This document shows positions 38,067-38,567 of a stretch of DNA of 39,258 bases, in pieces (the first letter of the stretch is position 1; every line of letters starts with the position of its first letter). The DNA comes from a virus (taxonomy: Duplodnaviria; Heunggongvirae; Uroviricota; Caudoviricetes). The notes under the pieces are model-generated. The model was not told where the DNA came from. It saw nothing but the letters and a program-made list of their open reading frames with translations, and did no database searches. The stretch lies in IMG/VR virus record IMGVR_UViG_2519899560_000023. The stretch is one strand, 5' to 3'. The position numbers were made by a program, and so were the translations under genes.

Positions 38067-38105
38067 ACCCAGCATAGTTCCAGCTATGCTGGGTTTCACT
38101 TTTAT
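38067..38105 (+). terminator. rho-independent terminator upstream of com/mom control region
   Basis: Perfect 10-bp stem CCCAGCATAG/CTATGCTGGG, 6-nt loop, then TTTCACTTTTATG. Confidence 0.65.
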
Positions 38106-38169
38106 GTAGTATCCTGTTGATTTGAAACATACTACATATACGCGTGATCCTACCTTCACTGTATAAAAA

Positions 38170-38330
38170 GTCAATAAAATGATCATTTTATGATCGTTTT
38201 CACCACCTAACTCTTCGTTTTCTTTAAGTAAATAATCACCTCCCTGAATCATTGTTGATGACTTTTCAATCTATTTGTTGTATCAATTAAACAAATCGAA
38301 TCGATCGTTTTTGTCGATCGATTGCATGAG
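38170..38330 (+). promoter_or_regulatory. putative mom-operon promoter/control region with paired GATC sites
   Basis: GATC at 38181, 38192, 38303, 38316; 9-bp perfect inverted repeat AATCGATCG/CGATCGATT at 38299-38323; AT-rich. Confidence 0.5.
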
Positions 38331-38366
38331 AAAGGCATCAACAACAAAGCAGGAGGTTATGCGGTC

Positions 38367-38567
38367 ATGTATCGAAACATACGGTGCCGACACTGCAATA
38401 AGCTACTGGCACGGGCCAGTTTCAGTTATCTGGAAGTAAAATGTCCGCGCTGTAAAACCCTCAATCAAATCACATCTCCGAGCGCCACAGAGCACCCCAC
38501 ATACACAAGGAAATCCTGTCGTGGGGAACAGAAAGCAAGTCACATCCCGAATCATCAGCACGCCTGA
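38367..38567 (+). CDS. com: Com zinc-finger translational activator of mom
   Basis: [10 protein letters not shown]...VKCPRCK...EHPT matches the remembered Mu Com pattern; AGGAGG SD; track ORF begins at TTG 38322. Confidence 0.85.

Follow-up and report, generated by a model that had tools for sequence, protein, structure and literature searches.

How does a prophage hold in check an enzyme that protects phage DNA from many restriction enzymes but is toxic to its host? The question is raised by the com-mom locus that closes a 39,258-nucleotide stretch of caudoviricete DNA (IMG/VR record IMGVR_UViG_2519899560_000023), the whole of which is called the window here. Mom is the enzyme concerned, and com is the small gene that precedes and overlaps its own. 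We read positions 38067-38567 of the window directly and scanned them for open reading frames (ORFs), repeats, terminators and GATC sites; every feature that a preliminary description of this DNA had listed was found where it had been placed. We consider it likely that the com-mom operon forms the right end of a Mu-like prophage of the Sp18-like kind found in enterohaemorrhagic Escherichia coli, and that it restrains a toxic DNA-modifying enzyme by a layered gate, made up of a terminator, an OxyR/Dam operator, translational activation by Com and a hairpin that hides the GUG start codon of mom.

The window carries a Mu-like backbone: it encodes a Mu transposase, a Gp48 homologue and a Gin-type invertase (34440-35000), and the product of a further gene (10669-11094) is homologous to the late activator C (39% identity to Mu C). 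About 4% of complete E. coli genomes, 232 of the 5426 searched, contain the com-mom stretch at 90-100% identity, with 136 records at 99% identity or more, and the fully identical copies include those of O157:H7, O111 and O103 strains. Homologues of Mom and its regulators have already been recorded in Sp18, the Mu-like prophage of O157 Sakai (PMC3299994; PMC2669165), and we infer the Sp18-type assignment of the window from the genome matches together with the literature on Sp18. The com-mom system is a close relative of the classic, well-understood system of Mu, the parts and logic of which have been known for decades, and its genes are already annotated.

Proposed operator and candidate promoters upstream of com

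Five GATC sites precede com, at positions 38146, 38181, 38192, 38303 and 38316, the first of which was absent from the preliminary description. The last two lie within a perfect 9-bp inverted repeat built on CGATCG (38299-38323), in which the arms AATCGATCG (38299-38307) and CGATCGATT (38315-38323) are separated by 7 nt, and they form the only GATC pair spaced by 13 bp in the 39-kb window. This unique spacing, the perfect repeat and the conservation of the pair across divergent loci place the proximal pair beyond chance. The density of the cluster was also tried as evidence and was rejected: five sites in 174 bp make up the densest cluster of the window, yet 21% of random placements of its 126 GATC sites equal it. 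The window as a whole is slightly depleted of GATC, with these 126 sites found against 153 expected.

Conservation was followed through 160 com loci fetched from genome and viral collections. Of the distinct regions preceding com, 43 of the 48 enterobacterial ones hold a GATC pair spaced by exactly 13 bp, as against 1 of the 64 from elsewhere. It is present on Mu-like and P2-like backbones alike, and whether the enzyme gene behind com encodes Mom, a C5 methyltransferase or an N6_N4 methyltransferase. Because the pair is shared across enzymes and backbones and is nearly limited to enterobacteria, it tracks the host group and not Com or a phage regulator.

By alignment, the palindrome is predicted to correspond to sites II and III among the GATCs of a Dam/OxyR operator, since the window repeat AATCGATC-N9-GATCGATT matches these two sites in Mu. 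GATC spacings of 18 and 13 bp are found at Mu mom, at P2-like loci such as that of phage Chuche and at the agn43 (flu) operator of E. coli K-12. The 13-bp pair of the window is in register with those of Mu and agn43, and the first GATC, which would give the 18-bp spacing, is absent. The agn43 core ATCGATCGTTTATATCGATCGATAAG nearly equals the window sequence ATCGATCGTTTTTGTCGATCGATTG. Strains 95JB1 and 95NR1 have a locus identical to that of the window (NZ_CP021335.1, 4902433-4903641; PMC6602927), and a methylome paper on strain 95JB1 carries no report of the methylation state of GATC 38303 and GATC 38316.

Candidate OxyR half sites were scored against the consensus ATAGnTnnnAnCTAT, as quoted in PMC2909390. 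Half site A (38273-38287; ATTTGTTGTATCAAT) agrees at 7 of 10 consensus positions and aligns without shift with its counterparts in agn43, Mu and P2-like com loci, and half site B (38304-38318), the core of the inverted repeat, likewise agrees at 7 of 10. They lie 31 bp apart and are the sole pair so spaced in the window; half sites 31-32 bp apart also occur at agn43, Mu, Chuche and two Salmonella/Citrobacter-type loci. In both agn43 and the window a 13-bp GATC pair sits inside one OxyR half site and the second half site lies 31-32 bp upstream, although agn43 has three GATCs, where the window has two, and its half sites agree at 8 of 10 positions. The P22 gtr operon, in which two GATC pairs, each in an OxyR half site, control phase variation, has the same kind of 13-bp pair inside its half sites, at a half-site spacing that fits reduced OxyR (PMC2909390). 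It differs in having three half sites, four GATCs and alternative ON/OFF binding, compared with the two half sites and two GATCs of the window. Phase variation has been shown for no com-mom locus (PMC2909390). Homology with Mu mom and agn43 suggests that OxyR would bind the sites and repress when they are unmethylated or hemimethylated, and that full Dam methylation would exclude it.

The operator is placed differently from that of Mu. Its last GATC lies at -51 relative to the com ATG in the window and in most enterobacterial loci, compared with -78 in Mu and 73-89 nt in three other loci (L017, L034 and L167), and the alignment has a gap of about 30 nt in the window where Mu, L017 and L034 carry a TTATG...AAC segment. 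In Mu, where the operator lies upstream of about -54, that segment holds the -35 element as well as the C-activator site TTATgccccAATAA, which stands between the OxyR site and the -10. The window is without that segment and its operator is roughly 27 bp closer to com, so that the operator probably covers the core promoter itself. The preliminary description had proposed Dam-dependent control as in Mu; the match of the palindrome to the Mu Dam/OxyR site is in keeping with this, whereas the geometry and the missing segment for the C site and -35 element do not follow Mu.

A Mu-type C box was looked for upstream of com and was not found. Upstream of lys and I (11090-11130 and 18990-19030), a common motif, TCCGCAAA..CC.GCC, resembles the TCCCGCA core of Mu Plys and PI and is probably the binding site of the C homologue of the window; this late-promoter motif is absent upstream of com. 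A scan with a sigma-70 weight matrix revealed no strong promoter in the window, and two weak candidates on the plus strand were kept as alternatives. Candidate P1 (38258-38286) consists of a -35 ATGACT (38258-63), a 17-bp spacer and a -10 TATCAA (38281-86), and is retained in two relatives (L107 and L100). It would set the operator at about -20 to +26, much as in agn43, where the operator lies at the transcript start and the annotated IsrC RNA begins at GATC-I. Candidate P2 (38311-38341) consists of a -35 TTGTCG (38311-16), a 19-bp spacer and a -10 CATCAA (38336-41), which reads TATCAT in two relatives (L100 and L104).

With either candidate, the operator would overlie or adjoin the core promoter, in an arrangement nearer to agn43 than to Mu. 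In loci of phage P2-like and Salmonella type, a good -10 (TATCAT or TATACT) starts 12 nt after the repeat, and therefore the operator spans the -35 and the spacer; at this place the window has CATGAG only. Transcription of com would thus depend on a weak promoter that overlaps or abuts the OxyR-type operator formed by half sites A and B.

A phage regulator might bind the palindrome instead of host OxyR, the candidates being the C homologue, Com itself and a zinc-ribbon ORF at 37788-37982. Perfect dyads are typical of dimeric phage regulators, this dyad always accompanies com in enterobacterial loci, the window does encode a C homologue, and PGAP names Com (WP_001310452.1) a 'Com family DNA-binding transcriptional regulator'. 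However, the experimental literature describes Com as an RNA-binding translational activator (PMC6483171), and the C-type motif of the other late promoters is missing here. The dyad occurs on Mu-like backbones, on others that are P2-like by gene content and before agn43, a host gene without com; all but one of the 64 com loci from outside the enterobacteria lack it, and so it does not travel with Com. Finally, relatives with the same dyad have an 86-amino-acid protein (no PHROG match) in place of the zinc-ribbon ORF. We therefore regard a phage-regulator operator as improbable.

More doubtful still is the proposal that the palindrome acts as RNA, whether as a 5'-leader hairpin affecting com translation or mRNA stability or as a terminator or attenuator, and that its GATCs are incidental. 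The repeat would be transcribed if P1 were used, the segment 38296-38380 folds at -22.7 kcal/mol (z = -2.5), and on the minus strand the scan picks out the repeat as resembling a terminator. Yet relatives such as L160, L123 and L125 keep the GATCs and their 13-bp spacing despite having lost arm complementarity beyond GATC, no plus-strand T-run follows the repeat, and to the right of the repeat there is no gene end on the minus strand. The element also matches DNA operators of known function.

The preliminary description had counted two GATC pairs upstream of com, which implies that both dyads (38176-38200 and 38299-38323) could form a two-site epigenetic switch of the gtr or pap type. Both pairs exist; the proximal one is supported by the evidence above, and the distal one is not. 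The distal segment (38146-38200) comprises GATCs 38146, 38181 and 38192 and a near-palindrome, AAAATGATCAT/ATGATCGTTTT (38176-38200), that holds the distal pair. Relatives M3 and 23CRST share the com-mom genes but do not preserve this segment: their homology starts near 38255-38270, with unrelated sequence free of the distal GATCs farther upstream. In addition, the distal spacing is 11 bp and not 13, the best 15-mer agrees with only 4 of 10 OxyR half-site consensus positions by hand count, and the density of the whole cluster is within chance. For these reasons the distal GATCs were not counted in the switch and probably lie outside it.

A two-site switch is accordingly very improbable, even though the two near-palindromes hold two GATCs each, lie 111 bp apart and have a precedent in the paired sites of P22 gtr (PMC2909390). 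An abutting promoter-like site on the minus strand suggests that the distal dyad serves a divergent small ORF. This sigma-70-like site (38174-38147) has GATC 38146 at its -10. Between the terminator and the operator there is also an inverted repeat with perfect 10-bp arms, TATGTAGTAT/ATACTACATA, around a loop of 16 nt (38103-38138), which, like the near-palindrome at 38176-38200, may belong to the divergent ORF.

Com and the predicted translational gate on mom

The com gene (38367-38567, plus strand) encodes a four-cysteine zinc-ribbon protein of 66 amino acids, a predicted translational activator. Its product scores 46.9 bits against PF10122 (cut-off 22.9; E = 1.9e-12), matches PHROG 13819 'gpCom' and is 47% identical to Mu Com, in agreement with the likeness to the Mu Com zinc finger noted in the preliminary description. 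Cysteines C7, C10, C26 and C29 (CxxC ... CxxC) are invariant in an alignment that includes Mu Com. A Shine-Dalgarno sequence read from the DNA, AGGAGG (38351-38356), lies 10 nt before the ATG, and Com would be translated from this strong ribosome-binding site. By analogy with Mu, Com would then bind its target mRNA and activate translation of the downstream gene.

That downstream gene, mom (38521-39258, plus strand), encodes a putative adenine-modifying enzyme of 245 amino acids and overlaps com by 47 nt. The protein covers PF25680 from profile position 1 to 202 of 202 (258.9 bits; cut-off 27.1) and is 79% identical to Mu Mom over 233 amino acids; adenine carbamoylmethylation dependent on glycyl-tRNA is established for Mu Mom (PMC13219725). 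The likeness to Mu extends to the gene order, to the com/mom overlap, which is 50 nt in Mu, and to a Mom that begins at GUG.

The mom frame is open from 38442, and GTG 38521 is its only ATG, GTG or TTG before the com stop codon, as counted in a locus (L090) identical to the window here; the next start is a TTG 49 nt beyond the com stop. The frame scan thus agrees with the preliminary description, which had taken this GTG to be the only mom start inside com, and the codon aligns with the Mu GUG. PGAP/RefSeq starts in identical loci are the same, with com at ATG 38367 and mom at GTG 38521. The RefSeq record for Mu itself begins Mom at an in-frame ATG upstream of the GUG given in the literature (241 amino acids), whereas the window lacks any such ATG. 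The longer annotation gives Mu Mom ten additional residues at its N-terminus, and their removal is tolerated (PMC13219725).

The strongest new evidence for the GTG start is an exchange of the enzyme behind it. A Mu-like phage inserted in Shiga toxin (Stx) phages, seen in LC727895 and LC727881, shares 96.5% identity with window positions 37750-38534 and then continues with a C5 cytosine methyltransferase (PF00145) in place of Mom. This methyltransferase (in LC727895) begins at the same GTG, with MGNKK where the window has MGNRK. The recombination junction lies about 10 nt past the start codon, from which it follows that the GTG and the sequence preceding it form one functional unit.

Two predicted RNA hairpins lie around this start codon. 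The first (38480-38495) is the putative Com-binding site, identified by the CC(N3)GAG motif defined in PMC6483171. The motif, CCacaGAG (CCACAGAG at 38485-38492), overlays Mu GAAUGCCUGCGAGCAU, and the 21-nt Com target at 38480-38500, GAGCGCCACAGAGCACCCCAC, overlays Mu GAAUGCCUGCGAGCAUCCCAC position for position. The outer pair of this hairpin covaries, being G-C in seven sequences and A-U in five and broken in none; covariation was counted in this small hairpin only, MAFFT having misaligned the 3' arm of Mu-type sequences. The second, a translation-inhibition hairpin (38495-38526), is homologous to a structure that has been probed in Mu, where the Mom GUG start lies in the stem (PMC6483171). 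In the window, CCCCAC (38495-38500) pairs with GUGGGG (38521-38526) in both the minimum-energy and the centroid folds, leaving the mom Shine-Dalgarno sequence AAGGA (38507-38511) in the loop and the GUG in the stem, so that a CCCAC/GUGGG stem hides the start codon here as in Mu. The preliminary description had set 38500-38570 as the stretch to fold for a Com-binding hairpin, which is too far downstream, as both hairpins lie at 38480-38526. An Rfam search that covered 37700-38700 gave zero family matches.

The arrangement GCC-NNN-GAG-CAY-CCCAC ... Shine-Dalgarno ... GUGGG is kept in nearly all distinct enterobacterial sequences, whichever enzyme follows, and conservation of this RNA motif accounts for the invariance of the peptide A-x-E-H-P-T in Com. 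Loci of Neisseria and Snodgrassella have stems of other sequence, GCAUCC/GGAUGC or GCAUCG/CGAUGC, around an AUG. The mechanism established for Mu, together with the conserved sequence and predicted fold, suggests that the GUG at 38521 would stay locked in the 38495-38526 hairpin until Com binds CC-ACA-GAG in the 38480-38495 hairpin and opens the start-hiding stem.

Possible insulation from the cargo and points of weakness

The outermost layer of the proposed gate is a putative intrinsic terminator on the plus strand (38066-38105), which consists of a stem-loop of 13 pairs (38066-38095) and a T-rich tail and precedes com by 270 nt. Its arms are perfect over 11 nt (38067-77 and 38084-94) and are followed by TTTCACTTTTAT; the stem includes 6 G-C pairs among its 13 bp, and the tail reads TCACTTTTAT. 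The fold reaches -21.5 kcal/mol (z = -6.1), which 0 of 200 shuffles equalled, and the structure proposed in the preliminary description is therefore borne out. From this structure it is plausible that the terminator blocks plus-strand read-through from upstream genes and would shield com-mom from transcription out of a 3.3-kb cargo. The closest relatives keep the hairpin with a weaker T-tract. Phage Chuche and related P2-like loci also have a strong terminator just upstream of the GATC cluster, a finding with which the insulation idea fits.

The cargo (35100-37749) lies between the Gin-type invertase gene and com, and Mu has nothing like it: the gin-com distance there is 95 nt, whereas 3.3 kb of cargo and a strong terminator intervene in the window. 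A 679-amino-acid protein encoded there combines a SASA sialate-esterase domain with DUF6645, and is accompanied by a DUF1378 protein (37286-37468) and a DUF826 protein (37504-37749). Sialate esterase, DUF1378 and DUF826 genes are typical of lambdoid Stx prophages. PGAP also calls a 154-amino-acid hypothetical protein on the minus strand (37788-38252) that crosses the plus-strand terminator. This long call looks over-extended: in relatives the ORF is marked as frameshifted, and only its C-terminal 64 amino acids (37788-37982), which carry a zinc-ribbon-like CPAC...CPAC pattern, stay open. No convincing family was found for this shorter ORF in Pfam or PHROGs.

Several observations weigh against a gate that works as proposed. 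The window holds 56 sites with a 7-of-10 OxyR match, and shuffled sequence averages 0.56 correctly spaced pairs per window, so that the half-site statistic is weak in isolation and the weight of the operator match rests on location and register. Half site A has lost the GATC-I and ATAG element that Mu and agn43 possess, and OxyR binding may be weak for this reason. The candidate promoters are poor as well: P1 scores 5.2 on the sigma-70 matrix, P2 falls outside the four best matches of the scan, and the -10 that reads TATCAT or TATACT in P2-like and Salmonella relatives is CATGAG or CATCAA in the window. Without the late-promoter motif before com, the lateness of expression is not accounted for. 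In the translational gate, the second pair of the Com hairpin is a C·A mismatch, leaving 3 of 4 pairs formed. The fold energy of the start-hiding stem is unremarkable alone, and single-hairpin z-scores, at -0.86 in the window and -1.12 in Mu, fall short of significance and were not used as evidence. The CCCAC/GUGGG core of this stem is invariant across enterobacterial loci and hence receives no support from covariation.

The loss of GATC-I and the ATAG element from half site A and the poor -10 sequences could also be read as signs of a non-functional promoter, in a control region decaying within a domesticated prophage, but this is the least probable of the alternatives, given that no damage is seen in the com and mom frames, in their ribosome-binding sites, in the Com motif or in the start-hiding hairpin, that Sp18 has been described as predicted intact (PMC2669165) and that Mu Pmom is likewise a very poor promoter by design (PMC3378877).

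Enzyme exchange and a proposed portable cassette

The layered gate is not tied to Mom. Comparison of sequences suggests that the block formed by the operator, com, the hairpins and the GUG behaves as a portable cassette, which relatives carry ahead of DNA methyltransferases from three other families. Among distinct com loci with a downstream gene, the gene after com encodes a D12 adenine methyltransferase in 48, an N6_N4 methyltransferase in 32, Mom in 24 and a C5 methyltransferase in 11, with a few oddities. Association of Com with adenine methyltransferases located downstream was already known (PMC3299994). In FluMu (hin1523), Pnm1 (nma1821), hia5 and B3 (ORF48), a gene for DNA modification occupies the place of mom and directly follows that of a Com homologue (PMC3299994); these non-enterobacterial loci differ from the window in that the enzyme mostly starts at AUG, the hairpins are others and the GATC repeat is absent.

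The C5 methyltransferase replaces mom behind a nearly identical com in several loci (L001 3773-4825, from LC727895; L009 2956-4008; L116-L125), and one C5-bearing sister prophage itself resides inside Stx1a- and Stx2c-converting phages. Outside the enterobacteria, Methylophaga thiooxydans DMS010 has a locus of com and a D12 methyltransferase on at least 12 contigs (L031, L033, L035-L037, L041-L046 and L048). Their repetition, often at the same offset from the contig end, suggests a multi-copy transposable Mu-like element that breaks the assembly. Com-like zinc-ribbon ORFs also overlap or precede genes unrelated to DNA modification, namely those for aspartyl-tRNA synthetase (L063 and L082, Margulisiibacteriota) and levansucrase (L077, Zymobacter), an adjacency that could reflect chance or a wider use of Com-like gates.

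The new points offered here are modest: the register match between the com operator and agn43, a shifted operator with apparent lack of a C site, and a swap junction just after the GUG. Two outcomes are nonetheless useful, in that the Mu mom operator is tied by sequence to the agn43 operator and that one cassette is found on four enzyme families. Neither the link to agn43 nor the shared cassette overturns existing knowledge. Because Mom protects phage DNA and is toxic, its silencing matters for prophage biology in Shiga-toxin-producing E. coli.

A bolder extension, which we consider unlikely, concerns Sp18-type and most other enterobacterial com loci together. With the operator sitting on the core promoter as in agn43, a heritable ON/OFF methylation switch would govern com-mom in place of the late activator, and a subpopulation of lysogens could express Mom or, in sister prophages, a methyltransferase. 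The region would then be a mobile cassette, both epigenetic and translational, borne by four unrelated enzyme families and joined to each just after the start codon. If this were true, host DNA could be modified by Mom or a methyltransferase in some lysogens without lytic induction.

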